Sequence record: PQ400056.1
From: a phage
DNA: 64,000 bases
Strand: one strand, 5' to 3'
Notes under the pieces: model-generated
Told to the model about the DNA's origin: nothing
Database searches by the model: none
Seen by the model: the letters and a program-made list of their open reading frames with translations, nothing else
Part shown: piece after piece, positions 6,789 to 64,000 of the stretch
Layout of the letters: each line of letters begins with the position of its first letter
How positions within the stretch are numbered: the stretch's first letter is position 1
Position numbers and translations under genes: made by a program

Positions 6789-9719
6789 ATGGCAGATTTA
6801 AGCAGAATCCAATTTAAACGCACTAGCACTAAAGGTCGTAAACCGGATGCTAGTACGATGAATCCGGGGGAATTGGCAATCAACCTTGCGGATCAATATC
6901 TTCTTACTAAAAATGATTCCGGTGATATTATCAATTTAAGTTGTCCTCCGGTGTATGACCGCGATGTTACAATGGCGGGTAAGGTTAAAGGTAATAATTA
7001 TATCTTAAGTAAAACCGCTAACTATCTGGAAGATCAGACAGCGAGAGATCTTAACTACTTTGGTGCTTTCCGTACCAATGGTCTTGATGGTCTTCTCGAA
7101 CTCACGCTAAACGTTCCTCACTCTTCCGGTGTCCAATATGGTCGAGGATTTACTTTCCAGTATGGACATACTGGATCACGAGTAGAAACCTATGGCTATA
7201 ATAGAGAAGGTCAAAAAGCATTTAGCTATAAAATGTATCACGAAGGTGATAAACCAACTCCAGGAGAATTGAACGTCTATAGCAAACAAGAAGTTGACCG
7301 TATGTTTGTTAAGAACGTTAAACTTGCTACATCTCCTCGTGATATCGTTGAAGGCTATTTTAAATTAGCAACTGCAATGATTCCACAAAACGGTCTTAGC
7401 GTATTTTTCCGTATTCATGGCGGTAACGGATATAACGTTACTGCATACGATCAAGTTGATATTGTAGAAATTGTTATTCGCAGTGGAAATGGTCGCCCTA
7501 AAGGTGTTAACGTTATTGCATATCGCCGAAATACAAACAAATCATTTGATGTTTTGGCTGTTAATACTTCTGGTGATAACTATGATATCTATGTGAAATA
7601 TCAGCGTTACACTGATAACGTTATTGTTGAATTTGGTAAAAGTGTTGGTGTTAATCTGGTAGTTCATGACGTTCCAGATTTTGTTGCTGAACGTCCTGCT
7701 GGTGATAATGTTATTGGCGGTCGTGCTGTAACTCTTTTCAACACCGAAAATAAACGTGGTGTGTTAAGTTTTGATGATAACACACAAAACAGCTATGACA
7801 TTGTTCATCTAAGTAATGATAAAGGTACTGGACGGAAATATATTCGTAAATTCCGTAGCAATTATAACGAAATGGTTTGGCATGAAACCGTTCAGGGTGC
7901 TGTATATCGTCTTGCTACTGGTGCTACAGATTCTACAGAAGTTATTAGAATTGATTCTAATAGTGCAATACCGGGTAATTATAAAGGATATGTAATTACT
8001 GGTAAAATGGAATTGCACGGTGGTGGTAATGCGATGACTTTACATCGACAGACTGGTCAAGCTGCATATATGGCGTGGTGGGGTCGTCGTGATGGTAAAA
8101 ACCAACGTAGTGGTTATATCGGTCATGCGGATGGTACTAGTGATGGTTTTGTGTGGCGTAATGATGTTGGTGCTAACTCATTTGATTTGGAAGGTAGTGG
8201 ACAAGTAAATTTGACTACAGGAAAAACAAAAATTGTATATACCAATGGTCAATATTATTCCGCTAACGCTGATGCATTCCGTATGATTTACGGTAAGTAT
8301 GGTGCATTCTGGCGAAATGATGGTGGTAAAGTTTATCTGTTGTCTACTGCCGAAAATGATAGATTTGGTGGTTGGAATACATATCGACCTTTTATCTACG
8401 ATCTTACTTCCGGTAACGTTCAATTAGGTGGTGATGGAAACGAAGATGTATTAACTCTAGAACGCGCAAGCAAGGCCGCTCGATTCTCTGGCAACGCTTA
8501 CATCAAAGGTCAACATTTAACATTTGATGCTGGTGCTGGACAATCCCGCGATTACTTCCGGTTTAACCATTGGGGCGATAGTAATAACGCTCGCGATAAC
8601 ATCCTACAGATTGAAGACAGTCAGGGTGCACACTTTACCACTGAACGCGCTATGGGTACTGGCAATATCACAGCACGTTTTAAAGGCTTTGTGCGTGTAG
8701 AATCCGGTGAGATTGCCTTTGATGCTAATCGTGGATCTGCGTCTCAATTTACCTTACATACATGGGGTAACGAGCAACGCAAACAGGTTTTTGAATGTAA
8801 GGATGCTACTAGTTATCATTGGTATACCGAACGTACAAACGGTGGAACTGGTCCTATCCTGTTCTCTGTTGCTGGTACATTAAAAACTGCGAGCAATATA
8901 CAGGTTGGCGGTGCTGATATTGAGTTTCGTCGCAGTGGTAATAAGCATTTATGGTTTAGAGATCCGAACGGTTTAGAATTAGGTTTGATGTACTGCGATG
9001 ATGCTGGTGTTATCCGCTTCCGTGGTCAGAAACAAGGTCAAACTTGGAAACTTGCTGATAAAATGATTCATCTTGAGGCGGGGACTGTCGGCGGGTCTGA
9101 TAAAGGTTTGATTCGTGGTAATGTTGCTGGTGGTAGCTGGGCTAGCTGGCGTGATCGTTCTGCCGGAATCCTCGTAGACTGTCCGAACTCAACCGATTCC
9201 GCTCATAACATCTGGAAAGCGACTCATTGGGGAAAATATCATATTGCGGCAATGGGTGTGCATGTTCCTAGTGGTACTATTACCAATGCTTTAGCTCGCC
9301 TAAACGTTCACGACGCCAACTTTGACTTTAACGCTGCGGGTGATTTTAGCGCAGGTCGTAACGGTAGCTTTAACGATGTTTATATTCGTTCTGATACTCG
9401 CCTTAAAATCAATAAGGAAGAGTATAAGGAGAATGCCACCGATAAAGTTAATCGCTTGACGGTATACACCTATGACAAGGTTAAATCTTTAACCGACCGT
9501 ACTGTCATTGCTCATGAAGTTGGTATTATTGCTCAGGATCTTGAAAAAGAATTGCCGGAAGCCGTAACAACTTCTAAGATCGGCGATCCAGATAATCCAG
9601 AAGAGATCTTAACAATTTCTAACTCCGCTGTCAACGCTCTTTTAATTAAGGCGTTTCAGGAAATGAGCGAAGAATTGAAAGCCGTTAAAGCTGAACTAGC
9701 GGAACTTAAAAAGAATTAA
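6789..9719 (+). CDS. 37: long tail fibre distal subunit gp37 with C-terminal intramolecular chaperone domain
   Basis: 976 aa; N-terminus MADLSRIQFKRTSTKGRKPDAS matches T4 gp37 MATLKQIQFKRSKIAG; last about 110 aa (9390-9716) carry the SDxRLK ... VGIIAQ ... coiled-coil signature of self-cleaving C-terminal chaperone domains. Confidence 0.85.
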   Translation: MADLSRIQFKRTSTKGRKPDASTMNPGELAINLADQYLLTKNDSGDIINLSCPPVYDRDVTMAGKVKGNNYILSKTANYLEDQTARDLNYFGAFRTNGLDGLLELTLNVPHSSGVQYGRGFTFQYGHTGSRVETYGYNREGQKAFSYKMYHEGDKPTPGELNVYSKQEVDRMFVKNVKLATSPRDIVEGYFKLATAMIPQNGLSVFFRIHGGNGYNVTAYDQVDIVEIVIRSGNGRPKGVNVIAYRRNTNKSFDVLAVNTSGDNYDIYVKYQRYTDNVIVEFGKSVGVNLVVHDVPDFVAERPAGDNVIGGRAVTLFNTENKRGVLSFDDNTQNSYDIVHLSNDKGTGRKYIRKFRSNYNEMVWHETVQGAVYRLATGATDSTEVIRIDSNSAIPGNYKGYVITGKMELHGGGNAMTLHRQTGQAAYMAWWGRRDGKNQRSGYIGHADGTSDGFVWRNDVGANSFDLEGSGQVNLTTGKTKIVYTNGQYYSANADAFRMIYGKYGAFWRNDGGKVYLLSTAENDRFGGWNTYRPFIYDLTSGNVQLGGDGNEDVLTLERASKAARFSGNAYIKGQHLTFDAGAGQSRDYFRFNHWGDSNNARDNILQIEDSQGAHFTTERAMGTGNITARFKGFVRVESGEIAFDANRGSASQFTLHTWGNEQRKQVFECKDATSYHWYTERTNGGTGPILFSVAGTLKTASNIQVGGADIEFRRSGNKHLWFRDPNGLELGLMYCDDAGVIRFRGQKQGQTWKLADKMIHLEAGTVGGSDKGLIRGNVAGGSWASWRDRSAGILVDCPNSTDSAHNIWKATHWGKYHIAAMGVHVPSGTITNALARLNVHDANFDFNAAGDFSAGRNGSFNDVYIRSDTRLKINKEEYKENATDKVNRLTVYTYDKVKSLTDRTVIAHEVGIIAQDLEKELPEAVTTSKIGDPDNPEEILTISNSAVNALLIKAFQEMSEELKAVKAELAELKKN

Positions 9720-10973: not shown

Positions 10974-11302
10974 TCTGGAAACTTCCCGTAAATGTTCTCT
11001 GCTAACATACGCGCATCGCTAATGATATCTTTCATGCTATGACCGTAGTGTTCAGCCATTGAGTTGACACAATCAACAAAGAAATTATAACGGCGACGGT
11101 TTAAGATTTCTTCTCTGCTATAGTTTTCATATTTGACGGTCGAGTGTGCTTTCTCGATTGCCTTGATTGCTATATTGACTTCATTGATAATGGTTTTAGC
11201 ATTGTATGCGCCACGACGGATCAGGATATTTGTCAATTCTCTTGCAATATCTTGCAATTCTTCATATTCATGTTCAAACATAATCAACCTCTCAAAATAC
11301 AA
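10970..11302 (-). CDS. hypothetical protein (110 aa)
   Basis: ORF with stop-start overlap to neighbours in the minus-strand array. Confidence 0.5.
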   Translation of the reverse strand: MYFERLIMFEHEYEELQDIARELTNILIRRGAYNAKTIINEVNIAIKAIEKAHSTVKYENYSREEILNRRRYNFFVDCVNSMAEHYGHSMKDIISDARMLAENIYGKFPE

Positions 11303-49131: not shown

Positions 49132-49625
49132 TTCTCAGCCTTTAATCTTTCTAGTTCTTCTTCCAGTTCCTTGATCCGTTGGTCACGTTCAAAGTCACGC
49201 TGTAGCTTAGTGGCAAATACTCGCTTAAACTGATTGTAATCATCGATTTTAAACACTTCTTCTTCGCCATAGCGACGTACAGAAACTTCGTAGTTGTTGA
49301 AAAATTGTTCCAACATTGCATCAGTAGTCAGTTCTGACGACACCACTTTAAAATAACGTTCTTCTGATTGCAAAAACCAGTTGTGCGCGTATTCCCGTAC
49401 ATCATCAACATCTCGACAGGTGTATGTTTTTCCATCAATTTCAATCGCAGAAACATATTCGATATCTGACGCAATTTTTTCAAAAGCGATAACTTTAAAT
49501 GTACGGTCACCGATAAAGTCTGCTATTGCATCATTTGCAACACTGGTTGCAAATGCTTTCCGCGCTCGCTCGTTTTTCCACTGATAGGTCATACCAACAA
49601 CAAACATATTACCATCAACAAACAT
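49128..49625 (-). CDS. paralogous-family protein (WExGKTY family), member 1
   Basis: MTYQWKNERARKAF...FKVIAFEKI...IEIDGKTY...RYFKVV resembles the neighbouring paralogs; N-terminus has an 18-bp tandem duplication; start uncertain (several in-frame ATGs 49592-49649). Confidence 0.45.
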   Translation of the reverse strand: MFVDGNMFVVGMTYQWKNERARKAFATSVANDAIADFIGDRTFKVIAFEKIASDIEYVSAIEIDGKTYTCRDVDDVREYAHNWFLQSEERYFKVVSSELTTDAMLEQFFNNYEVSVRRYGEEEVFKIDDYNQFKRVFATKLQRDFERDQRIKELEEELERLKAEK

Positions 49626-50463: not shown

Positions 50464-50964
50464 TTAACCGATTTTATCAAGTTCGTTTAATGCTTTCTCT
50501 GCTTCCTGTATAGCTTGCACTCTTTCCGGCATTTTGTCAAGAAAATCTTTCAACTCTTCAAAACTGGAGATATGACGCAAGGCATTAGCACCGATAGCCG
50601 CATGTGATTTGCATTCAAAGCGAATTTTATAATTATCCATCGCCAATTTGAGAAGGTCTATTAGATCATATTCATGACCAGGCAATAAAACTTCTTTGAA
50701 GCACGCTCGGTCGCCATCGGAAAACCATATATTATCACCAACATCGATAGAACTAATATAATCCCCTTCGTGATTATAGATTGAACGTACATTACCCCAA
50801 CGGTCTACCGTAGCGACAGTAAATGGTTTATCTAGATATGTAAACACACCATCAATATTAGGTTTTTGTTCGTAACGCCAACAATCACGCAAAATGCGCT
50901 TTTCGTCCTCACCAACCAACTTATATGTCTTCCCTTCTTCCCATTTCATAATATCATCTCTCAT
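50464..50964 (-). CDS. paralogous-family protein, member 3
   Basis: 166 aa; MKWEEGKTYKL ... DRACFKEV plus coiled-coil C-terminus. Confidence 0.55.
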   Translation of the reverse strand: MRDDIMKWEEGKTYKLVGEDEKRILRDCWRYEQKPNIDGVFTYLDKPFTVATVDRWGNVRSIYNHEGDYISSIDVGDNIWFSDGDRACFKEVLLPGHEYDLIDLLKLAMDNYKIRFECKSHAAIGANALRHISSFEELKDFLDKMPERVQAIQEAEKALNELDKIG

Positions 50965-51491
50965 TTTTTGATACGTGATTCTAATTGGATCATACGGTCG
51001 CGCGTTTGCTTGTATTCGCGGATAGCACCGATCCGGCTAGGCATACCATCAAGCACGCTCTTAATCCCTTCTAGGGTAGTGATTTTAGCAATGCTATTAT
51101 GTAACCCCATCTTATCGATCAACTGAATGTCGTAGGCTTCCATAAGCAGACCCAGACGTTCTAAAGTTAGGTCTTCTTCTTTTTCTTCCGATTCTGGAAT
51201 CTTAGGTTCAATAATAACTTCGGTAAAGAAACGACGCTCACCCGACCAAAACCACACACCGGAACAGCCAATAGGGGATTCTTTTAACGTCATAGAGTCG
51301 AAATCACTACCGATAATAGTAATTTCTCTAACATCACCATCATCGTCAATGTCTTCTACCCTAAACGGGCGACCAGCCAACAAGTCAACAATACATCTGT
51401 TAATAGACGACGAAAATTTAGTCAGTTCGGCTTTCGACGCTTCGCATTCAATCTTGTAAGTTTTACCAACTTCCCATTCCATAATAATCAC
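50961..51491 (-). CDS. paralogous-family protein, member 4
   Basis: 176 aa; MEWEVGKTYKI ... ERRFFTEV plus coiled-coil C-terminus. Confidence 0.55.
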   Translation of the reverse strand: MIIMEWEVGKTYKIECEASKAELTKFSSSINRCIVDLLAGRPFRVEDIDDDGDVREITIIGSDFDSMTLKESPIGCSGVWFWSGERRFFTEVIIEPKIPESEEKEEDLTLERLGLLMEAYDIQLIDKMGLHNSIAKITTLEGIKSVLDGMPSRIGAIREYKQTRDRMIQLESRIKK

Positions 51492-51492
51492 C

Positions 51493-51996
51493 TCAAATAA
51501 TTTTCACTGGAATACTATTAACAATCTTGTATTGTACTTGATTGTCAGACCCCCGCCACGGCTTCTTCGTTGGCATATCTTTAATATAACGCCCATCGAT
51601 GAACATGTCAACTGATTCTACAATTTTTCTTTGCTCATCATTCAATTGGTCAAGGGTATAACCGGACCATAGCCAAATATCTTTATTTGGCATCCATGAT
51701 TTTACTTCATCGATGATCCGCTGTACACCCTTTAAATTGCGTTTATACAGTGGATCGCCACCTAAGAATGTTAGCCCCTGAATAAAATCAGGTCTAAGCA
51801 GGTCCAGAATCAATCCCATTGTATCATCGGTGAATGGTTCCCCGTTCTTAGGATTGAGTAGGCTAGCATTAAAGCAACCATCACATGCGTGTGAACATCC
51901 GGTAACGTAAAGGGAGACTCTCACTCCCTCACCGTTAACCATATCACAATCTTTAATATCGGCATAGCGTAGTTTGCCGTATGTATCAGAACTCAT
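51493..51996 (-). CDS. nrdG: anaerobic ribonucleotide reductase activating protein NrdG (radical SAM)
   Basis: CSHACDGC (CxxxCxxC), GLTFLGGDPLY, KDIWLWSGY, KPWRGSDNQ match remembered T4 NrdG; ATG 51996 (track start is TTG). Confidence 0.88.
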   Translation of the reverse strand: MSSDTYGKLRYADIKDCDMVNGEGVRVSLYVTGCSHACDGCFNASLLNPKNGEPFTDDTMGLILDLLRPDFIQGLTFLGGDPLYKRNLKGVQRIIDEVKSWMPNKDIWLWSGYTLDQLNDEQRKIVESVDMFIDGRYIKDMPTKKPWRGSDNQVQYKIVNSIPVKII

Positions 51997-52213
51997 ATTC
52001 AATTACCCCGAACTCGTTTACAATCTGCGCTTTATAGTAACCACCGCGAGATGCTAATAGATAAGCTGGGCTTAGGTATTCGTATTCACGGATTTCTACT
52101 TGTGCGTTTTCAGTTTCCCAAATCAGTAAAGTCCACATATTTGATTCTCCTGTAAAGTTGTATCTCGTCTTGATGAATATAGTATAGGGGATCTCGCGAT
52201 CCCCGTCAAGCAT
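51986..52213 (-). CDS. hypothetical protein (75 aa)
   Basis: minus-strand ORF just outside the inverted-repeat arm. Confidence 0.4.
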   Translation of the reverse strand: MLDGDREIPYTIFIKTRYNFTGESNMWTLLIWETENAQVEIREYEYLSPAYLLASRGGYYKAQIVNEFGVIEYEF

Positions 52214-52741
52214 TTATTTTAAATTTTTTCGAATGTAGTCAGACCATTCCTTCCCTGTCAGTTCGGTCCCATTCTGGAAACTGAAATATTCATACGGCAT
52301 CGAGTCAAGATAAAACAGGATCATACATCGCGCCATATAATACCAATCACGATTAAAGTAAACTACGTTATCGCCAGTACCATCAGCACCTTTATCATAA
52401 CCATCGCGGGTACGGGCGACCCATTGAATAGTATCATTTTTCTCACGGATCGTAACAGGTTCCCAATATCCAGCACATCCAGCATGACCACACGAACAAG
52501 TAATGAAATATTGTCCTTTTGCTTTGTTGTCATCCCATTCACGATGGATTGGTTCGATCTCGTGAAACAGTGCTAAGCAATCATGATTATGCAACACTGG
52601 CTTACCATCAATCAATGCATGGAATGTATACAAACGACCCGTAGACAAATAGCTATCCTCACGCTCAACCAGTTCAATAGCAATCTTTTTAGCTCGTTCT
52701 TTGTGTCGTTGTGCTTTACGCTTACGGTTTAATGATTTCAT
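52214..52741 (-). CDS. hypothetical Cys/His-rich protein (175 aa)
   Basis: basic N-terminus MKSLNRKRKAQRHKERAKK; HNHDCLALFHEIEPIHREW and CSCGHAGCAGYW suggest metal binding; ATG 52741 with GAGGTGA SD. Confidence 0.5.
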   Translation of the reverse strand: MKSLNRKRKAQRHKERAKKIAIELVEREDSYLSTGRLYTFHALIDGKPVLHNHDCLALFHEIEPIHREWDDNKAKGQYFITCSCGHAGCAGYWEPVTIREKNDTIQWVARTRDGYDKGADGTGDNVVYFNRDWYYMARCMILFYLDSMPYEYFSFQNGTELTGKEWSDYIRKNLK

Positions 52742-52758
52742 ATTCACCTCACACATTA

Positions 52759-53298
52759 TCAAAGGTCGCGATATAGTACATTATGAAAATGAGAACTTGC
52801 ATTACCAATATTGTAGATAATAAATTCTTCATCCGGCGCTTGCGCTACAAATTGAGTATGAGCAACCGCCACAACCTTAAAAATACGATCCGTGATCTTG
52901 TGTTTAATTTCTGCCCCTACTTCCATAGGAACATATTCATTTGTTTCTGTTTCAGTCGCAAAACAGCCATCTTCTTCATAAGCACGAACAAATCGATCGC
53001 AATCAGTACGCTTAACAAATTCAAGAGTATACAATTCTCGTGAATTGTCGGTATAGACCAATACAGAATTATTATGATAGCGAATCACATACAGGTTATT
53101 ATCATCGTCAATTACGCAAAAGCTACGGATTCCTTCGCCTTTACTCCAGCAGATATTAACCACCGTTCCTCTAATAAAAAAACTTTCCTTTAAATTAAAA
53201 CTAGTCAATGTGCTAGCGTGCATTTTAACAACAACACCATCGCCAATTTCCAGTTTACGAAGTTTAACTTCTTTGTTCAGTACACAAAACATCATCAT
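52759..53298 (-). CDS. hypothetical protein (179 aa)
   Basis: first gene after the nrdD terminator-promoter pair; ATG 53298 with GAGAGG SD. Confidence 0.5.
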   Translation of the reverse strand: MMMFCVLNKEVKLRKLEIGDGVVVKMHASTLTSFNLKESFFIRGTVVNICWSKGEGIRSFCVIDDDNNLYVIRYHNNSVLVYTDNSRELYTLEFVKRTDCDRFVRAYEEDGCFATETETNEYVPMEVGAEIKHKITDRIFKVVAVAHTQFVAQAPDEEFIIYNIGNASSHFHNVLYRDL

Positions 53299-53327
53299 GT
53301 TGTCCTCTCGTTGTTTTCGATGTGAGC

Positions 53328-53355
53328 ATTATACATTAGCTAATCATGTTGTCAA
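53328..53355 (-). promoter_or_regulatory. consensus sigma70-type promoter TTGACA, 16 nt, TATAAT
   Basis: minus-strand TTGACA (53355-53350), TATAAT (53333-53328); mirrored on the plus strand at 56596-56623 in the inverted copy. Confidence 0.6.
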
Positions 53356-53361
53356 CACCCC

Positions 53362-53393
53362 AAAACGAAAAAGCCGACCCTTTCGGATCGGCT
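53362..53393 (-). terminator. rho-independent terminator after nrdD
   Basis: minus-strand AGCCGATCCGAAAGGGTCGGCT followed by TTTTCGTTTT. Confidence 0.6.
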
Positions 53394-53398
53394 GAAAT

Positions 53399-55262
53399 TT
53401 ACATGTGCTTAACGCGGTTTACCATCTCGGAGTGTTTCCCGTGGTTGAATGGACGCAGATCAACAGATCCAAGATATCCACTAACGCGACGGATAACATT
53501 CATCTTTTCCAGATTGTCATTACCGCAATCAGGACAAACAAAACCAGACTCGGTCGCTCTCATTTCCTTAGTAGATCCGCATACATGACATACATCAGAA
53601 GGAGTATTAACACCGAAGTAGTGCAATTTATCCATTGCATAGTCTACTACAGTTTCAAGACCTTTCAGGTTGTTTTTCATGTCTGGGAACTCAACATAAG
53701 AGATCATGCCACCGGACGCCAGCCAGTGATAATCTTTCTCAAAGTCAATTTTCTCAAATGGAGTGACTTTCCGGTCTACGTCAAGGTGGAATGAGTTGGT
53801 GTACCAGTCTTTATCGGTAGCACCCTTAACAATACCAAATTGCTCTCGGTCCAGTCGATTAAATCGATAGCAAAGGCTCTCGGCTGGAGTACCGTAAAGA
53901 CTAAACCCAAGTCCGGTTTCGTCCTTCCATTTTTCAGTATAATGACGCAAGATCTTAAGAATATGTTTACCGTATCGCTGCGCATCTTCCGAATCAAACG
54001 GATGAACACCAAACAGGACGCTCAATACCTCATGTAAACCAATATATCCAAGAGAGATACTAGCGCGACCATCTTTCAACACTTCCAAAATTTCATCGTT
54101 TTGATGAATACGGAAAAACGCACCTTCGGTATACAGCACCGGAGCAACATTGGCTTTAGCCCCTTTTAAAGCGTCTACGCGACTCATGAGCGCATCAAAG
54201 CAAATAGGCATACGATTGGCTAGCTCTTGTTCGAATAGCTCAATTCTGCGCATTACAGACGCTTTACCAGCACGACGCGCGGCAATAAGGGCAATACGCG
54301 GAAGATTCAGGGTCACAACACCCAAGTTATTACGTCCGTCTAATACTTCTTCTCCTTTCTCATTATGCCACACACCCAGGAAGCTACGACAACCCATCGG
54401 GCTAACCGGAACACTAGATCCGGTGATACTACGGTTATTCTTCGCAGAGATATAATCAGGGTAAAGACGCTTACTAGAACATTCCAATGCAAGTTGCTTA
54501 ATGTCGTAGTTCGGATCTTCCGGTTTAAGGTTTAATCCTTCTTCTAAGAACATCACCAGCTTAGGAAACACCGGAGTGATACCATCTTTACCTAAACCTT
54601 TAGTTCGAACGTTCAGGATCGCTTTCTGAATCAGTTTTTTCTTCCCAGCTAGTACCCATACCAAAGGTTAAAGTCACAAAAGGCGTTTGACCGTTGGTGG
54701 AGAACAAAGTGTTGATTTCATATTCCAACGCCTGATATCCGTCTAACGTTTCTTTTTCTGTTTTCTCTTGTGCATAGAGAGTATCAGCTTTGATTCCGTA
54801 GGTTTCGGCATCAGCAAGGTGTTTATAATATGTTTTCTCAACATACGGTGCTAACACCTGATCGATGTTTGCGATTGTGGTCCCGCCATATTGATGACTT
54901 GCCACCTGTGCGATAATTTGAGCGGTTACAGCACAAGCAACGCCGATTGATTTCGGACTTTCGATTTGTGCGCTACCCAATTTAAAACCATTCTCTAACA
55001 TGTCTTTGAGATTAACAAGACAGCAGTTAGTAAACGGCATAGCGGGTGCATAATCCATATCATGATAATGAATGTCACCGTCTACATGCGCTTTATAGAT
55101 GTGCTCAGGTAACACGGTTTTAGCAATCTGTTTAGACACAGCACCAGCAATCAGATCTCGACGTGTCGGGAATGTTCGCGCGTCTTTGTTCGCGTTCTCT
55201 TTGCTTACTTCGTTTTCTTTACCCGTTGCGATCTCTGTAATGTCTTTGATTAGTTTTTCCAT
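53399..55262 (-). pseudogene. nrdD: anaerobic ribonucleotide reductase NrdD, interrupted by a 1-nt frameshift in an A6 run
   Basis: N-terminal ORF 54600-55262 (ENANKDARTFPTRRDL, FTNCCLVNLKDMLENGFKLG, TFGMGTSW) and C-terminal ORF 53399-54664 (LIQKAILNVRTKGLGKDGITPVFPKLV ... C-terminal CPDCG zinc ribbon) match remembered T4 NrdD; frames join if the A run at 54635-54640 (minus strand) is 5 nt; no intron. Confidence 0.85.
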
Positions 55263-55404
55263 TGTATCACCTATGAAAAAGCGGGATTTCTCCCGCTCGT
55301 TGATAGTTATTTTACCAGTTCTGCTAATTCTTTTTCTTTAGCTTCTAGTTCAGCTTTAAGCTGTTTAATCTCTTGTCGCTTCTTATTCATATTACGCTAA
55401 AGAA

Positions 55405-57721
55405 TAGAAGAAGGATTAAACCTTAAACCGGAAGATCCGAACTACGACATTAAGCAACTTGCATTGGAATGTTCTAGTAAGCGTCTTTACCCTGATTATA
55501 TCTCTGCGAAGAATAACCGTAGTATCACCGGATCTAGTGTTCCGGTTAGCCCGATGGGTTGTCGTAGCTTCCTGGGTGTGTGGCATAATGAGAAAGGAGA
55601 AGAAGTATTAGACGGACGTAATAACTTGGGTGTTGTGACCCTGAATCTTCCGCGTATTGCCCTTATTGCCGCGCGTCGTGCTGGTAAAGCGTCTGTAATG
55701 CGCAGAATTGAGCTATTCGAACAAGAGCTAGCCAATCGTATGCCTATTTGCTTTGATGCGCTCATGAGTCGCGTAGACGCTTTAAAAGGGGCTAAAGCCA
55801 ATGTTGCTCCGGTGCTGTATACCGAAGGTGCGTTTTTCCGTATTCATCAAAACGATGAAATTTTGGAAGTGTTGAAAGATGGTCGCGCTAGTATCTCTCT
55901 TGGATATATTGGTTTACATGAGGTATTGAGCGTCCTGTTTGGTGTTCATCCGTTTGATTCGGAAGATGCGCAGCGATACGGTAAACATATTCTTAAGATC
56001 TTGCGTCATTATACTGAAAAATGGAAGGACGAAACCGGACTTGGGTTTAGTCTTTACGGTACTCCAGCCGAGAGCCTTTGCTATCGATTTAATCGACTGG
56101 ACCGAGAGCAATTTGGTATTGTTAAGGGTGCTACCGATAAAGACTGGTACACCAACTCATTCCACCTTGACGTAGACCGGAAAGTCACTCCATTTGAGAA
56201 AATTGACTTTGAGAAAGATTATCACTGGCTGGCGTCCGGTGGCATGATCTCTTATGTTGAGTTCCCAGACATGAAAAACAACCTGAAAGGTCTTGAAACT
56301 GTAGTAGACTATGCAATGGATAAATTGCACTACTTCGGTGTTAATACTCCTTCTGATGTATGTCATGTATGCGGATCTACTAAGGAAATGAGAGCGACCG
56401 AGTCTGGTTTTGTTTGTCCTGATTGCGGTAATGACAATCTGGAAAAGATGAATGTTATCCGTCGCGTTAGTGGATATCTTGGATCTGTTGATCTGCGTCC
56501 ATTCAACCACGGGAAACACTCCGAGATGGTAAACCGCGTTAAGCACATGTAAATTTCAGCCGATCCGAAAGGGTCGGCTTTTTCGTTTTGGGGTGTTGAC
56601 AACATGATTAGCTAATGTATAATGCTCACATCGAAAACAACGAGAGGACAACATGATGATGTTTTGTGTACTGAACAAAGAAGTTAAACTTCGTAAACTG
56701 GAAATTGGCGATGGTGTTGTTGTTAAAATGCACGCTAGCACATTGACTAGTTTTAATTTAAAGGAAAGTTTTTTTATTAGAGGAACGGTGGTTAATATCT
56801 GCTGGAGTAAAGGCGAAGGAATCCGTAGCTTTTGCGTAATTGACGATGATAATAACCTGTATGTGATTCGCTATCATAATAATTCTGTATTGGTCTATAC
56901 CGACAATTCACGAGAATTGTATACTCTTGAATTTGTTAAGCGTACTGATTGCGATCGATTTGTTCGTGCTTATGAAGAAGATGGCTGTTTTGCGACTGAA
57001 ACAGAAACAAATGAATATGTTCCTATGGAAGTAGGGGCAGAAATTAAACACAAGATCACGGATCGTATTTTTAAGGTTGTGGCGGTTGCTCATACTCAAT
57101 TTGTAGCGCAAGCGCCGGATGAAGAATTTATTATCTACAATATTGGTAATGCAAGTTCTCATTTTCATAATGTACTATATCGCGACCTTTGATAATGTGT
57201 GAGGTGAATATGAAATCATTAAACCGTAAGCGTAAAGCACAACGACACAAAGAACGAGCTAAAAAGATTGCTATTGAACTGGTTGAGCGTGAGGATAGCT
57301 ATTTGTCTACGGGTCGTTTGTATACATTCCATGCATTGATTGATGGTAAGCCAGTGTTGCATAATCATGATTGCTTAGCACTGTTTCACGAGATCGAACC
57401 AATCCATCGTGAATGGGATGACAACAAAGCAAAAGGACAATATTTCATTACTTGTTCGTGTGGTCATGCTGGATGTGCTGGATATTGGGAACCTGTTACG
57501 ATCCGTGAGAAAAATGATACTATTCAATGGGTCGCCCGTACCCGCGATGGTTATGATAAAGGTGCTGATGGTACTGGCGATAACGTAGTTTACTTTAATC
57601 GTGATTGGTATTATATGGCGCGATGTATGATCCTGTTTTATCTTGACTCGATGCCGTATGAATATTTCAGTTTCCAGAATGGGACCGAACTGACAGGGAA
57701 GGAATGGTCTGACTACATTCG
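55405..57721. repeat. inverted repeat arm 2: inverted duplicate of nrdD 3' part, terminator, promoter and two ORFs
   Basis: track ORFs 55464-56552, 56653-57192 and 57189-57800 duplicate the 53399-54664, 52759-53298 and 52214-52762 products; the last acquires a different C-terminus past the repeat boundary at 57721. Confidence 0.9.
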
Positions 57722-57800
57722 CCATCTGATGGTTGCTTTTAGTGATTGCCGACAGCATCCGGGGAAGTACAATAATAAATGGGAATTGATGACCTGTTAA

Positions 57801-58060
57801 GACCTGATTTATTGGGGTAAATTTTAGGTGAAATCACTGTATAAAAAATTAAAGGGGCTGAGGATATAAATAAAATAAAATGGAGAGCCAAAGAGTCTCA
57901 GGGAACCTCCAGAAAAAAAGGGGAGGGGGGGGGGGAGAGAGTATTTATTAGTGGGTGTGGCTGTCGGGGAATTTTTATGAGGGGAATTGATGGTTCAAAT
58001 TGATTAAAAAGATGGGCTGCATATAAAAAGGGATCGGGAAAAAATATCTAAAACAGTAAC
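57801..58060. other. purine-rich low-complexity bridge with no coding capacity (probable chimeric junction)
   Basis: strong A/G bias with very few C, G run of 11 at 57925-57935, GGGGAGAGAG-type strings; separates AT-rich phage sequence from GC-rich P2-like sequence. Confidence 0.6.
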
Positions 58061-58166
58061 TCATCCAAGCATCACACATCACTATGCCGACACAGAAGAC
58101 ACCGTGCTGGAAATTCAGCGGCTGGCTACCGTCTGCCGCGACACCCTGAATGGCATGACGAAGTAA
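58061..58166 (+). other. 3' fragment of a truncated upstream ORF of the P2-like replication region
   Basis: open frame ...HPSITHHYADTEDTVLEIQRLATVCRDTLNGMTK ending 7 nt before the gene A start; 5' part absent. Confidence 0.3.
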
Positions 58167-58172
58167 ATCACT

Positions 58173-60938
58173 ATGACGGCAGAGCACATCAGGGACTGGC
58201 AACAACCGCGCCACGCAGTGGGGCGTGAAGGAACGGGGATCCCCGCTCCTGAATCCGCGCTTTCCTCCTGGCTGGATGCCTACCGGGCAGAGAACGAGCG
58301 CCGCAAGGAAATGGCTGATGCGGCGTTCTCCGCCACGCCGCTGGGCAACCTGATTAATAAAAGCCTGGACGCACAGGAAAAACAGGACAAAACCATCACA
58401 CTGGCAGGAGACGCCAGAAAACAGGCACGCGGCGCAGTGGATGAAGCCATGGCCTCGCTGCGCCTGCTGCCGTCCTATCTGCGCGATCCGCTTATTCGCC
58501 ACCTCTCCTTCCTGCGCAAAAAACAGGAAGCCGATCGCCGGAAAGGCAAAAAGAGCTGGCAGGCGGAACGCTATGCACGCGGAACCCTGCGCAAAATATT
58601 CGAACGTCTGGACCGCACCGATCACCGCTGGCTGACACCGGGTTATCGCTCCCTTGCCGGACGCGAACGCCTGGACGATTTGCTTTACCTGCCGCAGCTC
58701 AACAAACACCAGATACAGACGCTGGCCACCATGACGGCGGCGATGTTCAGCAGCACCTTCGAAAAACTCTGCGATGGCTTTGGCGCGACCGATGGCGAGC
58801 TGACCATGGATGTAACGCTGAAGGCGTATCAGATGCTGGCCCGCATGGCGTTACACCTGCACGCCATGCCTCCACATTATGACGCACTGACAACAGACAA
58901 AGACCGGAGGAACGAACCAGACACGGAGCTGCTGCCGGGCGCAATCCTTCGCCTGACCTGTGCGGAATGGTGGAAACGCAAACTGTGGCTGTTACGTTGC
59001 GAGTGGCGGGAAGAACAACTCCGCGCCGCCTGTCTGGTTTCCAGAAAAACATCGCCCTATCTGAGCCAGGACGCGTTAAGCGAGTTTCGCGCACAGCGCG
59101 AGAAAACACGCGATTTCCTGAAAAGTTTCATGCTGGAAAATGAAGACGGGTTCACGATTGATCTCGAGACGGTGTATTACGCGGGAGTAAGTAACCCGGT
59201 TCACCGTAAGGCAGAAATGATGGCCACCATGAAGGGACTGGAACTTCTGGCCGAAGCCCGTGGCGACAGAGCGGTGTTTCTGACCGTCACCTGCCCGTCA
59301 AAATACCACGCAACAACGGAGAACGGTCATCCGAACCCCAAATGGAACGGGGCCACCATGCGCGACTCCAGCGATTACCTGGTTAACACGTTTTTTGCGG
59401 CGGTCCGCAAAAAACTGAACCGCGACGGCCTGCGCTGGTATGGCATCCGCACGGTGGAGCCTCACCATGACGGCACTGTGCACTGGCATATGATGGTCTT
59501 TGCACATCCGGACGAGATTGAAACCATCGTGTCCCACGTCTGCGATATTGCCATTCAGGAGGACCGCCACGAGCTGGGCGATGACATAACTCCGCGTTTT
59601 AAGGCGGAGTATGTCGACGGCTCAAAAGGCACACCAACCAGCTACATCGCCACCTACATCGGAAAGAACCTGGACAGCCGCGCCGTGGATGGCATCGACC
59701 CGAAAACGGGCAAGCCACGCGTTGACCACGAAACCGGAAAATCAATGGCCGAGAGCGTGGAGCGCGCCATCGGCTGGGCGCGCCTTCACCGGGTCCGTCA
59801 GTTCCAGTTCTTTGGCATCCCCTCCCGTCAGGTGTGGCGTGAACTGCGCCGCCTTGCCAGCCAGATGGCACGCAATCCGGAAGGCCCGCAACGGCTGAAA
59901 GATGATGCAATGGATGCGGTACTCGCTGCCGCCGATGCCGGGTGTTTTGCCACCTACATTGAAAAACAGGGTGGCGTGCTTGTTCCACGCAAGGACTACC
60001 TGATTCGCACCGCCTACGACCTCGCAGATGAGCTGAACGATTACGGCGAACAGAGCGTACAGATTTACGGGATCTGGTCACCACTCATCGGGGAATCCTC
60101 CCGTGTGTGCACGCATCCGGATAACTGGAAATTGGTAAGACGTAAACCAGAACCAGAAGACAACGCCCACGAAAATGGTTTTGACCTTCAGGGCGGCCCT
60201 GCCGCCCCTTGGACTCGTGGCAATAACTGTCCCCGTGTACAGGAAACAGGCAACAGCGGGACAGAACAGTCGGAAGAACGGCCAGCACCGTGGCCGCAGC
60301 TTCCTGACGGCGTTGATGTGGATGAATGGATGCGCTCACTGAAACGGCACGAACGCCGGGCGCTGATGCGTTCGCTGCGTGACAAACAGGCAAAAAACAA
60401 CAGTGATGAAATGCAGAACTGGACACAGAGCCGCAAACAGCCGCGGCCTTTGCCTGATAACCACGAGTTACTCGCTAAAGAATGGCGGGAGTCTGCCGAA
60501 TCTCTCGGCCTGCATATCGGTGAACAACAGATGCTGCACCTGTTACGGGGCGGCAGTCTGTACGTTGACGGCAGCATCATTGCGCCGCAGGGATATGAAA
60601 TTGTATGTAAACCGGATACCCGACCGGACAGCCGAATCACGCAACTCTGGCAGCGCCTGAGTCGTAATCACAGCGTAAACAGCACGGAAATCCGCCATAA
60701 CCCGGTTTCCAGCTATCTGAAACAGCTCGGGGCATCAGACCCAGAAGCCGCCGCACGCCTGGCATCCACAATTCAGCAGGACCAGAACACCATGAAAACT
60801 CCCGTTACCGTGCTTTCTGACATGCTGCGCGCCATCCGTGACGCAGAGCACGCACAGAGAATCAATGAAACCACTGAACGCGCACGTCACAAGGCGGGTC
60901 TGTTGCAGGGCAAAGGCAATAGCGAGAAGAAAAAATAA
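58173..60938 (+). CDS. A: P2-type replication initiation protein A (HUH rolling-circle endonuclease)
   Basis: 921 aa, GC-rich; HUH motif VHWHMMVF and dual-tyrosine motif YIATYIGKN typical of the P2/186 gpA family; minus-strand track ORFs inside it are judged spurious. Confidence 0.85.
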   Translation: MTAEHIRDWQQPRHAVGREGTGIPAPESALSSWLDAYRAENERRKEMADAAFSATPLGNLINKSLDAQEKQDKTITLAGDARKQARGAVDEAMASLRLLPSYLRDPLIRHLSFLRKKQEADRRKGKKSWQAERYARGTLRKIFERLDRTDHRWLTPGYRSLAGRERLDDLLYLPQLNKHQIQTLATMTAAMFSSTFEKLCDGFGATDGELTMDVTLKAYQMLARMALHLHAMPPHYDALTTDKDRRNEPDTELLPGAILRLTCAEWWKRKLWLLRCEWREEQLRAACLVSRKTSPYLSQDALSEFRAQREKTRDFLKSFMLENEDGFTIDLETVYYAGVSNPVHRKAEMMATMKGLELLAEARGDRAVFLTVTCPSKYHATTENGHPNPKWNGATMRDSSDYLVNTFFAAVRKKLNRDGLRWYGIRTVEPHHDGTVHWHMMVFAHPDEIETIVSHVCDIAIQEDRHELGDDITPRFKAEYVDGSKGTPTSYIATYIGKNLDSRAVDGIDPKTGKPRVDHETGKSMAESVERAIGWARLHRVRQFQFFGIPSRQVWRELRRLASQMARNPEGPQRLKDDAMDAVLAAADAGCFATYIEKQGGVLVPRKDYLIRTAYDLADELNDYGEQSVQIYGIWSPLIGESSRVCTHPDNWKLVRRKPEPEDNAHENGFDLQGGPAAPWTRGNNCPRVQETGNSGTEQSEERPAPWPQLPDGVDVDEWMRSLKRHERRALMRSLRDKQAKNNSDEMQNWTQSRKQPRPLPDNHELLAKEWRESAESLGLHIGEQQMLHLLRGGSLYVDGSIIAPQGYEIVCKPDTRPDSRITQLWQRLSRNHSVNSTEIRHNPVSSYLKQLGASDPEAAARLASTIQQDQNTMKTPVTVLSDMLRAIRDAEHAQRINETTERARHKAGLLQGKGNSEKKK

Positions 60939-61118
60939 CCAAGAAAGAAATCATCAATTGTATGAAGGTAGAGTTTAGACATGGTAAGGACGTTCCATGA
61001 GGCACACTGTAATTTCATATAGTATTCCTCTTCCCTGTTTGATAAAAAAGTGCAATACTATAAATAGTCCAGTTAAATGTTTTTTCAATTCACTTAAAAT
61101 CAAGAGGTTACAGTTAAG

Positions 61119-62240
61119 ATGGGCGACTTAGGTGGTATTCAGTCAGATTTAGCCCAACTAGTTAGACTGGTAATAACTGAACAGTATGATGACGTTCGGT
61201 TATATGTCGCTCGCTTGGTGCGTAAATATCGGGAAACTATGCCTGCTCTATCCGAGCAGCTTGATCTTTATCTACGAAATAAACCGCAAAAGCCTGCACA
61301 AAGCCTGCGTAAGGTTACCGCACCAAAACAAGCGCTGCCTCAAACCATGCCTGTGGACGAGGAGTCAAGGCTTACCTTGCTTAAAGCACCAAATGAAAAG
61401 ATTGTGAGCAAACCTCTACTGTCCAGTCAGATAGAAGACTCACTGGATCAAATTATTCTTGAGCGGAAGCACATCGATCGCCTCAAGACTCTCGGCTTAC
61501 AACCAACACGCTCTGCCATTTTTGTTGGCCCTCCGGGTGTAGGTAAAACACTTACGGCAAGCTGGTTAGCTCAGAAATTAGGGGTTCCTTTTTACGTTCT
61601 TGATTTAACGGCAGTAATGAGCAGCTATCTGGGCAAAAGCGGAAATAACCTTCGGGCAGCTCTAGATTTTGCGAAGAAAGGGCCGTGCGTTCTTCTGTTA
61701 GATGAAATTGATTCAATCGCCAAAAAGAGAAGTGATGATTCTGATGTTGGAGAATTAAAAAGACTTGTTACCGTAATACTCCAGGAGGTTGACGAATGGC
61801 CGTCTTCTAGTTTGCTACTTGCTGCAACTAACTTCGCTGAGTTGATTGATCCAGCACTATGGAGACGTTTTGATTTAGTGCTCAATTTTGAGAAGCCAGA
61901 TAGCGAAAGTATTAAAGAAGCAATTAAACGCTTTTCAGGTCCCGACTACGCGATTTTTGCACGTTGGATAGATCTACTGGCTATTATGTTCAAAAATGAA
62001 TCTTTTAGTAATATTGAGCGTTCTATCAACAAATTCCGACGTTCGGTCGCTTTAGGTATTTCCTCAGATGAAGAGTTGATTGGGTCGTTCATTAAAGATG
62101 GTTTATCAGAATTAGACAGGAATGAACGTAAAGAAATTGCAGTTACTCTAAAAAGAAATTCTAAATTATCCCAGCATGCCATATCAGACTTAACCGGAGT
62201 CAGTAGGGATACAATTAGAAAATACAGTCAAAAAATGTAA
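61119..62240 (+). CDS. AAA+ ATPase (373 aa), candidate defence-module component
   Basis: Walker A GPPGVGKT, Walker B VLLLDEID, sensor-1 LLLAATN, arginine-finger region PALWRRFD; AAGAGG SD; AT-rich island directly downstream of GC-rich gene A. Confidence 0.85.
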   Translation: MGDLGGIQSDLAQLVRLVITEQYDDVRLYVARLVRKYRETMPALSEQLDLYLRNKPQKPAQSLRKVTAPKQALPQTMPVDEESRLTLLKAPNEKIVSKPLLSSQIEDSLDQIILERKHIDRLKTLGLQPTRSAIFVGPPGVGKTLTASWLAQKLGVPFYVLDLTAVMSSYLGKSGNNLRAALDFAKKGPCVLLLDEIDSIAKKRSDDSDVGELKRLVTVILQEVDEWPSSSLLLAATNFAELIDPALWRRFDLVLNFEKPDSESIKEAIKRFSGPDYAIFARWIDLLAIMFKNESFSNIERSINKFRRSVALGISSDEELIGSFIKDGLSELDRNERKEIAVTLKRNSKLSQHAISDLTGVSRDTIRKYSQKM

Positions 62241-62263
62241 TACAGCATAGATAAGGAGTATGT

Positions 62264-62521
62264 ATGGCGAAAACTAATTTTCTGATTGGACGCGGCGAAT
62301 TATTAACCAGCGATATTCCTGGTCCTAAAAGAGTGCCCGGAAAAGCTGAGGTTTATTCTCTTTACGAATCGAAACAACGTTTATTGCCGCAAATTGCATC
62401 TACTATAGAAAATTTTGATGATTTACCCAGTCAGGCATGTCCTTATGATTATGCTGTGGCTAAGTTGACGTTGAATCCGAGCTATATTGCACGCTCTTTT
62501 TTTTCCTGCAAAAATGCTTAA
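62264..62521 (+). CDS. small ORF (85 aa), possibly the frameshifted N-terminus of the downstream subtilase
   Basis: strong AAGGAG SD; ends 3' of a T8 run (62497-62504); removing one T fuses it in frame to the subtilase ORF. Confidence 0.45.
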   Translation: MAKTNFLIGRGELLTSDIPGPKRVPGKAEVYSLYESKQRLLPQIASTIENFDDLPSQACPYDYAVAKLTLNPSYIARSFFSCKNA

Positions 62522-64000
62522 GTCTACCGGGTTAACGTCTATTGGCAGCAGGACGGTAAAAATTACGCCTCAAAGCTGGAAGCGAAAAGTTACTGTGTCA
62601 GAAGTAACTACGACACAAATGTTTGTTGCTGGTAAAAGAGAATCCTTCAAAGAGTTACCTCATTGGGTGTCAGGACTCAAAGAGTTTTCTGACGAAGCGA
62701 TTGATTTTGCACGCATAGAACGGTTCGATGCCTATTTACCCGAAGAGCGTATTATTACCATTGGTGAGCAGGATTCTTCGTATTTTGAGGTTGGTGTTCA
62801 TTTACTGCCAGATAATGAACAAGACTTGGTTCAGCAACAATTTGTTCAGTTTGCATCAAATTTGAACATCAAAGTACATACTTCATTAGCTTTTACCGCT
62901 GGTACATTATGGTTCGTGCCAATCCAGGCCGATAGAATTACTATTAGTAAGCTTGCGAAATTTACATTTGTACGAGTAATAAGACCGGTTCCAAGATTGC
63001 GTGGGATTAGACCAATACAAAGGAACTACGGTCCTTTAGCTCAGTGTAAATTGCCTGCTGAGGGCCCCGTATCTTCAGAAATAAAAGTTGCGATTCTTGA
63101 TGGTGGTTTACCATCAGAGCACGCTATATCGCCATGGTTAAAATCCTATAGAGTTTTGGACGATCATGCAGAGGATGATCCAGACGGTTTAGAGCATGGT
63201 TTAGCTGTGTCTTCAGCCTTTTTATTTGGACCAATAAGTAATAAATCGGAAGCGAAAAGACCATACTCTTATATTGATAACTTAAGAGTTTTGGACAACA
63301 AGACCTGCCAAGAAGATCCGCTGGAACTATATCGAACTTTGGGCTTTATTGAAGAGGTATTGTTGTCTCGCCAGTATCAGTTTATCAATCTAAGTTTAGG
63401 TCCAGACCTACCAATTGAAGATACGGAAGTTCATGCATGGACTTCCGTTATTGATGATTTGTTAAGTGATGGTGAAACATTAATGACTGTTGCTGTTGGC
63501 AACAATGGAGAAATGGATCGCAAGTCTGGTAATGCAAGAATTCAAGTACCAGCCGATTGCGTTAATGCTCTTGCTGTTGGTGCTTGTGATACAGTTAATG
63601 ATACGGAATGGAAACGAGCACCATATAGCGCCATTGGGCCAGGCAGAAGTCCTGGCGTGATGAAACCGGATTTAGTTGCGTTTGGTGGTGACACAGACGA
63701 GTACTTTCATGTTTTAGGTAAAGGTAAGAAGCCTGTAATCATACCCCAGCTAGGAACAAGCTTTGCCTCTCCTTACGCCTTACGAGCAGCTGTTGGTGTT
63801 CGGGCAATTTTAGGGAACGATTTGAGCCTACTAGCAATCAAAGCTTTGTTAATTCATGCGTCAAAACAGCTTGATCATCCTTGTACAGAAGTTGGCTGGG
63901 GAAAACTTCCTGAAGACTTGAACGACATTATAGTCAGCCCTGATGGTGTTGCCCCGCTCGGAAGGTTACACAAACCCTGGACAAGGTCTCGTGGGCTCGG
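62514..64000 (+). CDS. subtilisin-like serine protease (peptidase S8), partial at window end
   Basis: catalytic motifs in D-H-S order: VAILDGG, LEHGLAV, VAVGNNGE (oxyanion Asn), GTSFASPY; ORF remains open to 64000; no SD before its own ATG. Confidence 0.8.
   Translation, partial: MLKSTGLTSIGSRTVKITPQSWKRKVTVSEVTTTQMFVAGKRESFKELPHWVSGLKEFSDEAIDFARIERFDAYLPEERIITIGEQDSSYFEVGVHLLPDNEQDLVQQQFVQFASNLNIKVHTSLAFTAGTLWFVPIQADRITISKLAKFTFVRVIRPVPRLRGIRPIQRNYGPLAQCKLPAEGPVSSEIKVAILDGGLPSEHAISPWLKSYRVLDDHAEDDPDGLEHGLAVSSAFLFGPISNKSEAKRPYSYIDNLRVLDNKTCQEDPLELYRTLGFIEEVLLSRQYQFINLSLGPDLPIEDTEVHAWTSVIDDLLSDGETLMTVAVGNNGEMDRKSGNARIQVPADCVNALAVGACDTVNDTEWKRAPYSAIGPGRSPGVMKPDLVAFGGDTDEYFHVLGKGKKPVIIPQLGTSFASPYALRAAVGVRAILGNDLSLLAIKALLIHASKQLDHPCTEVGWGKLPEDLNDIIVSPDGVAPLGRLHKPWTRSRGL

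Follow-up and report, generated by a model that had tools for sequence, protein, structure and literature searches.

The inverted duplication of 2,317 bp near the end of the phage sequence in record PQ400056.1 is almost certainly not a real feature: it lies in stitched junk that ends with a synthetic nanopore barcoding primer, and almost certainly arose as an artefact of library preparation or assembly. In the window (the whole stretch of 64,000 nt that was analysed) it very probably marks a false join where a nanopore-PCR contig ends, in which chimeric molecules from a BARSEQ-type barcoded random-fragment library were assembled with primer BRK05 left untrimmed, and it would then belong to no phage genome.

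The duplication and its phage context

Using a repeat search and a base-by-base comparison, we found that positions 52230-54546 and 55405-57721 are reverse complements over 2317 nt each with 0 mismatches (100% identity), that the two arms are 858 nt apart and that complementarity extends by 0 nt beyond either arm on any side; this identity exceeds chance by far. The two independent checks agree with the coordinates given by an earlier sequence-only reading, and the arm content it listed (the 3' part of nrdD, a terminator, a promoter and two downstream ORFs) was found as described (Table 1). Its statement that an ORF is cut mid-gene at the outer boundary was incorrect, since the boundary lies 16 nt ahead of the point where the 175-aa ORF reaches its stop codon, while its 858-nt spacer was right in length and proved to be composite, with natural phage sequence at 54547-55387 followed by a 17-nt filler at 55388-55404. 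The start-to-stop span of nrdD, matched by Pfam NRDD and Gly_radical, is 1864 nt (53399-55262), and its 3' 1148 nt (62%) fall within the arm.

Table 1. Features of the window discussed in the text, with positions, strand and basis of assignment.
Feature	Position	Strand	Basis or remark
RB49-type Krischvirus sequence	88-55387		Five colinear megablast blocks vs MN850574 (kaaroe), 96.5-99.2%
175-aa ORF	52214-52741	(-)	Downstream ORF; arm holds all except last 16 nt; no Pfam match
Left arm, natural copy	52230-54546	(-)	kaaroe locus L002 7231-9547, natural orientation
179-aa ORF	52759-53298	(-)	ORF downstream of nrdD; no Pfam match
Promoter-like site TTGACA-16-TATAAT	53355-53328	(-)	Sequence, 12/12 consensus, inside arm
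Terminator-like hairpin	53393-53372	(-)	Sequence, inside arm
C-terminal 62% of nrdD	In left arm	(-)	Pfam
Natural phage sequence between arms	54547-55387	(-)	nrdD 5' part and start of intergenic/upstream region
Orphan filler CATATTACGCTAAAGAA, 17 nt	55388-55404		Matches neither phage nor arm
Right arm, almost certainly artefactual copy	55405-57721	(+)	Exact reverse complement of 52230-54546; kaaroe L002 9547-7231, opposite strand
Degraded phage copy	57722-57856		C-poor, deletion-rich, ~70% to reverse complement of 51728-51888
Junk, ~205 nt, purine-/homopolymer-rich (AAAAAAAGGGGAGGGGGGGGGGGAGAGAG...)	57857-58061		Poly-G/A; matches nothing
E. coli P2-like prophage fragment, 5.9 kb	58062-63953	(+)	99.9-100% identity to ETEC1749 and UMNK88
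End of small ORF	Start of prophage fragment	(+)	Prophage gene content
gpA replication endonuclease	58173-60938	(+)	Prophage fragment
IetA ATPase	61119-62240	(+)	Prophage fragment
IetS S8 peptidase	From 62264	(+)	Prophage fragment; frameshifted
Synthetic oligonucleotide	63954-64000	(+)	47/47 nt = positions 8-54 of PCR primer BRK05

According to the alignment to phage kaaroe, genuine phage sequence ends at 55387, within the putative spacer. Up to this point the window encodes tail fibres, rIIA/B, DNA polymerase and other functions up to nrdG and nrdD, with colinearity broken only by the usual variable blocks and with 99.2% identity over the final block (50923-55387). Past the equivalent of 55387, kaaroe runs on into the next gene with no turn-back. 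The arm was detected at 60 places in 59 records of related phages, essentially once per record, the repeat lies at the point beyond which 59-73 related phage genomes are no longer colinear, and this comparison, which the sequence-only reading had proposed as a check, supports its view of the repeat as an artefact. Phage sequence never picks up again after the right arm, which makes the structure a terminal turn-back and not an insertion. The genomes of T4-type phages are circularly permuted, without fixed ends, and the other option raised beforehand, a genome-end structure, is unsupported, as the related genomes examined read straight through both junction sites.

A real inverted duplication, carried by a phage subpopulation or by replication intermediates and arising through an in vivo template switch near nrdD (e.g. 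a hairpin-capped or snap-back concatemer branch captured by sequencing), is very improbable. Perfect arm identity is expected of a very recent event, and the recombination-driven, highly branched replication of T4-type phages counts in its favour, whereas long perfect palindromic structures are substrates of the phage endonuclease VII, the duplication is missing from the 59 related genomes, and the right arm is followed by noise, junk, host prophage and a synthetic primer, with no return to phage sequence. Template-switch models have been put forward for inverted duplications elsewhere (ODIRA, PMC10766183), although long perfect palindromic structures also amplify poorly by PCR (PMC12870357). 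Equally slight is the chance that the junction 55387/54546 alone is a real, rare Krischvirus snap-back or template-switch intermediate captured before library preparation, with the downstream junk, prophage and primer as unrelated assembly debris.

Sequence beyond the right arm and library chemistry

The last 8.6 kb of the window contain five discontinuities, at 55387/88, 55404/05, 57721/22, about 58061/62 and 63953/54. Beyond the right arm, the degraded copy continues on the same strand, resumed after a skip of 341 nt, and aligns with 113/162 identities and 30 gap columns, 27 of which are bases missing from the window copy. Within it, the 20 nt at 57742-57761 match the P2-like prophage exactly (prophage locus L001 3987-4006), an observation that a simple single-read model does not account for. 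The junk that follows has no match in phage, E. coli genomes or plasmids, its alignment scores against phage, prophage and spacer were below those of shuffled controls, and BRK05 and the ONT adapter aligned to it permissively scored no better than shuffles. For the linker as a whole (about 57722-58068), no meaningful match was found in E. coli genomes or plasmids, and only 57723-57856 aligns, to phage at ~70%. Positions 57722-58061 look like raw long-read sequence without polishing rather than like evolved DNA.

The prophage fragment starts and ends abruptly; GC changes from 0.40 to 0.57 on entering it, and its match breaks off mid-gene at 63954. The adjacency of phage and prophage sequence in the window, together with the 20-nt prophage piece near the arm, could be read as a real hybrid molecule or integration, in which T4-like phage DNA was joined to a host P2-like prophage and the inverted repeat marks the rearranged junction. 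This is the least probable of the explanations considered and extremely unlikely: ~340 nt of degraded and junk sequence separate phage from prophage, a survey of 5,426 complete E. coli genomes showed none with phage-like sequence at this prophage site or with such a phage-prophage junction, and after 5.9 kb a synthetic primer interrupts the fragment itself in the middle of a gene. Moreover, we know of no integration by lytic T4-type phages.

The primer match reads ...CCGCTCGG, then ONT barcode 05 AAGGTTACACAAACCCTGGACAAG, then GTCTCGTGGGCTCGG, BRK05 carrying ONT barcode 05 (BC05/NB05; for its identity see PMC8643650 and bioRxiv 2024.02.26.582005) and a Nextera-type stub. Its sequence is given in Table S2 of PMC11649196, as part of the BARSEQ primer set BRK01-BRK96. 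In the published BARSEQ method, DNA sheared to ~3 kb is given adapter GTCTCGTGGGCTCGGT and amplified by single-primer PCR over 18 cycles, then made into an ONT ligation library and assembled with Flye. The PCR primer in the sequence shows that the library was amplified in vitro; the chemistry it indicates is adapter ligation with single-primer PCR for nanopore sequencing (BARSEQ-type). Multiple displacement amplification (MDA), which had been suggested as a source, is indicated by nothing in the window. A screen for Illumina/Nextera, TruSeq, ONT, Mu-end and SMRTbell sequences found none in the window outside 63962-64000, bar one 14-mer. This lone adapter-like 14-mer, with 1 mismatch, is at 1104-1117, inside a kaaroe-colinear block. 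Primer sequence was found only at 63954-64000; neither the inversion junction nor the linker at 57722-58061 showed any.

Single-nucleotide homopolymer differences were also observed. An additional T (T5 to T6) at 54635 splits nrdD into ORFs 54600-55262 and 53399-54664, and an additional T (T7 to T8) at 62497 frameshifts IetS, which is intact in UMNK88 and ETEC1749. Compared with kaaroe there are six isolated 1-nt homopolymer differences (5061, 5118, 5212, 14964, 50964 and 54635), and of the three that were placed against genes, 54635 is the one shown to be gene-breaking in the phage part, 14964 is intergenic and 50964 sits at the edge of a gene. As a general signature of error these indels, including 62497, are supportive but not decisive, as they could be real mutations.

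Origin of the inverted join

Read along the window, the sequence follows the + strand to 55387, passes the filler and continues on the - strand from 54546, backwards for 2317 nt, before noise, junk, the P2-like prophage fragment and the synthetic primer follow. The breakpoints 55387 and 54546 are 841 nt apart (858 nt including the filler). The filler CATATTACGCTAAAGAA is unique in the window even with 2 mismatches allowed, and primer BRK05 showed no significant match to it, the alignment being no better than shuffles. No exact inverted microhomology was found at the inversion junction, where the filler occupies the site, and an imperfect hairpin across it is marginal (z = -2.4; 4 of 200 shuffles fold as well). 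An exact 41-mer spanning the inner junction gave 0 matches in viral, genome and metagenome contig collections, and searches for recorded proteins identical to the frameshifted nrdD N-terminal ORF, to the chimeric 196-aa ORF or to the native 175-aa ORF gave no result.

We infer that one or a few chimeric reads linked + strand 55387 to - strand 54546, possibly when the polymerase switched templates during the 18 cycles of PCR or as another library chimera, and that the assembler may have taken this link and re-walked the same high-coverage phage sequence in reverse; such a re-traversal would account for the 100% identity of the arms. Position 52230 would then be the end of the well-supported consensus, where an unpolished read overhang starts, and further chimeric or shared-primer links may have added co-purified host prophage DNA and the primer of the next amplicon. 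Inverted and foldback chimeras are documented for ONT libraries and for amplified ones; the segments of a read are separated by unmapped sequence rich in homopolymers, and the second copy is of lower quality (PMC12870357; PMC9484634).

The earlier interpretation as an inverted chimera from amplification or long-read sequencing is supported by the end of colinearity, the degraded, junk and prophage sequence after it and the 47-nt BRK05 match; the geometry is not that of a foldback in the strict sense, the 841-nt offset being beyond the ≤200 bp of PMC12870357. Another technical subclass, distinct from a PCR or graph-path mis-join, is unlikely, namely a true physical snap-back molecule made by MDA, or a nanopore read of template and then complement (2D-like foldback) in which poor base-calling cost the first ~840 nt of the second strand. 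Gapped inverted chimeras are a classical MDA product (Lasken & Stockwell 2007 as cited in PMC9484634; Pacasus, PMC6218980), and nanopores read the second copy of an inverted repeat faster and with poorer base-calling (Spealman 2020, as relayed in PMC9484634), which fits the deletion-rich sequence after the arm; however, adapter-ligation PCR is the sole visible library chemistry, the offset again lies beyond the 200-bp limit, and the junction shows no remnant of an ONT adapter. For the mis-join at the contig end, the value lies in quality control and not in biology, as a clean example of untrimmed BARSEQ-type primers and chimeric amplicons in assemblies. In any public record, all sequence after 55387 (inverted copy, noise, prophage fragment and primer) should be trimmed. 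Left untrimmed, the contig would give rise to a spurious structural variant and a spurious phage-prophage junction, to a chimeric ORF of 196 aa (203 codons when counted from the upstream TTG) and to Iet defence genes wrongly taken as "phage-encoded". A true duplication would give a T4-type genome a large palindrome of an unusual kind, for which the evidence leaves very little room, and a true snap-back intermediate would report strand-switching of a T4-type replisome near nrdD.

Comparison with known systems

With phage terminal inverted repeats or hairpin telomeres and with Gin/Cin/Hin segments, the structure shares only the bare geometry of inverted copies and a spacer. A terminal inverted repeat or genome terminus was rejected, since the arm is single-copy in relatives and carries ordinary metabolic genes, no genome end is located here and no protelomerase is nearby. 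A Gin/Cin/Hin-type invertible segment was rejected as well, with no recombinase present, arms consisting of nrdD and two ORFs without Pfam match, and a spacer consisting of the nrdD 5' part; so was a composite transposon or IS-flanked element, the arms being native phage genes colinear with relatives.

Foldback reads, defined by breakpoints ≤200 bp apart (Heinz, Meyerson & Li 2026, PMC12870357), are found with other chimeric reads in ONT genomic libraries at low frequency and mimic duplicated inversions. Like them, the window has its second segment at the same locus on the opposite strand (kaaroe L002 7231-9547) and homopolymer-rich unmapped sequence between joined segments; unlike them, its breakpoints exceed this distance and its structure is known from an assembled sequence and not from a single read. 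Template-switch chimeras, as described for MDA (Pacasus, PMC6218980), T7 replisome SDA (PMC9484634) and PCR, share with it the inverted junction with a loop, an amplified library (here attested by BRK05) and poor sequence quality after the second copy, whereas the window has a 17-nt untemplated filler in place of a clean inverted microhomology and, in contrast to the MDA type, its indicated amplification is PCR and not strand displacement. As in adapter or primer contamination of assemblies (BARSEQ primers, PMC11649196), the exact 47-nt BRK05 match abuts a truncated prophage. All amplicons of a BARSEQ library have common ends that an assembler meets as repeats, as in adapter-mediated mis-joins, from which the window differs in that its primer sequence is seen at 63954-64000 alone.

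The inverted repeat and its phage setting

A repeat finder and a base-by-base comparison concordantly showed that 52230-54546 (left arm) and 55405-57721 (right arm) are perfect reverse complements, exactly where the sequence-only reading had placed them: each arm comprises 2317 nt with 0 mismatches, the arms are separated by 858 nt and the match extends 0 further bases at either edge. The gene content of the arm also agreed with the earlier description, namely part of nrdD, a terminator-like hairpin, a promoter-like site and two small ORFs, for which a Pfam search gave no match. The outer boundary had been said to cut an ORF mid-gene; it actually falls 16 nt short of the stop codon in a 175-aa phage ORF at the outer end of the arm (52214-52741, minus strand).

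Features of the inverted repeat and of the sequence following it (window positions)
Feature	Position	Strand	Details
nrdD, C-terminal 62%			in arm; Pfam NRDD and Gly_radical
Terminator-like hairpin	53393-53372	-	in arm
Perfect TTGACA-16-TATAAT site	53355-53328	-	in arm
Filler CATATTACGCTAAAGAA	55388-55404		17 nt, between 55387 and right arm
Chimeric ORF	57189-57800	+	203 codons from TTG at 57189; 196 aa from ATG at 57210
Purine/homopolymer junk (…AAAAAAAGGGGAGGGGGGGGGGGAGAGAG…)	57857-58061
gpA replication endonuclease			first gene of prophage fragment
IetA (AAA ATPase)	61119-62240		second gene; PADLOC E = 1e-77
IetS (S8 peptidase)	62264 to ~63953		third gene; PADLOC E = 7e-52

The window is mosaic. 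Its region 88-55387 is colinear with RB49-type Krischvirus genomes and aligns to Escherichia phage kaaroe (MN850574) in five megablast blocks of 96.5-99.2% identity, the final one covering 50923-55387; according to this alignment, natural phage sequence covers the left arm and then 54547-55387, which makes up most of the spacer. GC content is ~0.40 and GC skew is negative as far as ~55000, the sign of the skew reverses across the right arm and GC rises to 0.57 at 58000. Both arms map to a single kaaroe interval on opposite strands. Past the point matching 55387, kaaroe reads on into the next gene, whereas the window continues with the filler, which has no second occurrence within the window, and then with the right arm. 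At the inversion junction (55387/55405) neither a primer nor clean microhomology was found, and an imperfect hairpin spanning it is only marginally better than shuffled sequences (z = -2.4). The arm sequence occurs at 60 places in 59 related phage records, essentially once per record, and the relatives are continuous through both junction sites. T4-type genomes are circularly permuted, and a genome-end structure, previously offered as an alternative to an artefact, is not expected in them. Readings as an invertible segment or a transposon were rejected, since no recombinase or transposase was found and both arms consist of native metabolic genes.

Elsewhere in the phage part, a hypothetical gene is 18 nt longer than in kaaroe through an in-frame insertion (49598-49615) that resembles a tandem duplication of CAACAAACATAT(TACCAT), and the neighbouring block 49325-49502 is locally divergent and indel-rich; both are ordinary strain variation. 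Megablast left 1-87, 7648-9350 and 11084-11302 unaligned to kaaroe. These blocks, located near the window start and in the long-tail-fibre/adhesin region, are probably the host-range variable blocks typical of Krischvirus; the segment 1-24000 aligns to vB_EcoM_PTE-Eco09 from position 1, with 97% of it covered overall.

Noisy sequence, prophage fragment and terminal primer

Directly after the right arm, 57722-57856 reproduces 51728-51888 in reverse complement at ~70% identity, resuming the strand of the right arm after a 341-nt skip. The copy is strongly C-poor, and 30 of the 162 columns in its alignment are gaps, 27 of them bases absent from the window copy. It encloses, at 57742-57761, an exact prophage 20-mer (3987-4006 of the P2-like prophage reference locus), which adjoins on the upstream side the prophage point (4001) where the match restarts 300 nt later in the window, and CATCC flanks both sides of the junk between the 20-mer and the resumed match. 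The 20-mer within the noisy phage copy suggests that several poor reads may have been merged into a mosaic consensus here. For the junk, nothing matched in E. coli genomes or plasmids, and local alignment against phage and prophage gave no match, with scores below those of shuffled controls.

From 58062, the window is 99.9-100% identical to the P2-like prophage of the porcine ETEC strains UMNK88 and ETEC1749. PADLOC calls the AAA ATPase and S8 peptidase of this fragment as an IetA/IetS anti-phage defence pair; the pair sits in a hotspot downstream of gpA. IetS, intact in UMNK88 and ETEC1749, is frameshifted by an additional T at 62497 (T7 to T8), and the prophage match breaks off abruptly at 63954, within this gene.

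The final 47 nt of the window (63954-64000), directly abutting the prophage gene cut mid-ORF, read CCGCTCGG-AAGGTTACACAAACCCTGGACAAG-GTCTCGTGGGCTCGG and are an exact substring (positions 8-54) of BRK05, a barcoded PCR primer of the BARSEQ nanopore library method listed in Table S2 of PMC11649196. They contain a 24-mer identical to Oxford Nanopore barcode 05 (NB05 forward, reverse complement of BC05/RB05) and a 15-mer Nextera-type read-2 adapter stub, and are untrimmed primer contamination. The BARSEQ method begins with DNA sheared to ~3 kb, to which the duplex adapter GTCTCGTGGGCTCGGT is ligated; one barcoded primer then drives 18 cycles of PCR, and the product goes into an ONT ligation library, with assembly by Flye (PMC11649196). 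The presence of BRK05 inside the sequence proves that artificial joins are present and identifies the data as nanopore reads of PCR amplicons with common ends; another amplicon probably follows past the window end. A real in-vivo inverted duplication is very improbable, and a real phage-prophage hybrid even more so: either would require degraded sequence, junk, a cut prophage and a synthetic primer to coincide within a few kb, neither is present in the 59 relatives and phage sequence does not resume 3' of the right arm within the window.

Origin of the inverted copy

The inverted duplication is almost certainly a library/assembly artefact and no real biological feature. An artefact had already been favoured in the sequence-only reading, and the primer, the junk, the prophage fragment and the single-copy arm in relatives support it; the multiple displacement amplification suggested there gives way to a PCR-amplicon nanopore library with an assembly mis-join. 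Five discontinuities within 8.6 kb (55387/55388, 55404/55405, 57721/57722, 58061/58062 and 63953/63954), together with the terminal primer, have the appearance of a contig end assembled from a handful of chimeric or low-quality reads. As the most economical account we infer a chimeric link followed by an assembler back-walk. A chimeric molecule or read would join the plus strand at 55387 to the minus strand at 54546, and the assembler, taking this link, would retrace the same well-covered phage sequence backwards; arms walked twice in this way would be 100% identical. Supported consensus would stop at 52230, where unpolished read overhang would start with the skip, the degraded copy and the junk, and additional links would add host prophage DNA that had co-purified, as well as the primer belonging to the next amplicon.

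Relative to kaaroe, an additional T at 54635 (T5 to T6) frameshifts nrdD on the minus strand into ORFs 54600-55262 and 53399-54664, either as a residual homopolymer sequencing error or as real inactivation of a gene dispensable under aerobic propagation. The homopolymer insertions at 54635 and 62497 lend weaker support to an artefact.

The chimeric ORF consists of the duplicated 175-aa phage ORF minus its final 5 codons, running on into noisy sequence, and a gene caller would list it as a novel protein variant. This ORF (57210-57800 from its ATG) is spurious, as is the apparent phage-Iet linkage; given the artefact verdict, both should be discounted and the sequence truncated at 55387.

Each element of the inferred account has precedent in the literature. 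Inverted/foldback chimeras make up ~0.6% of reads in ONT genomic libraries, and unmapped homopolymer-rich sequence is found between read segments (PMC12870357). PMC9484634 states that amplified DNA yields template-switch inverted chimeras (citing Lasken & Stockwell 2007) and that base-calling is poorer in the second arm of an inverted repeat (citing Spealman 2020). The foldback definition of PMC12870357 places the breakpoints <=200 bp apart, whereas those of the inversion described here are offset by 841 nt, which excludes a foldback in this strict sense.
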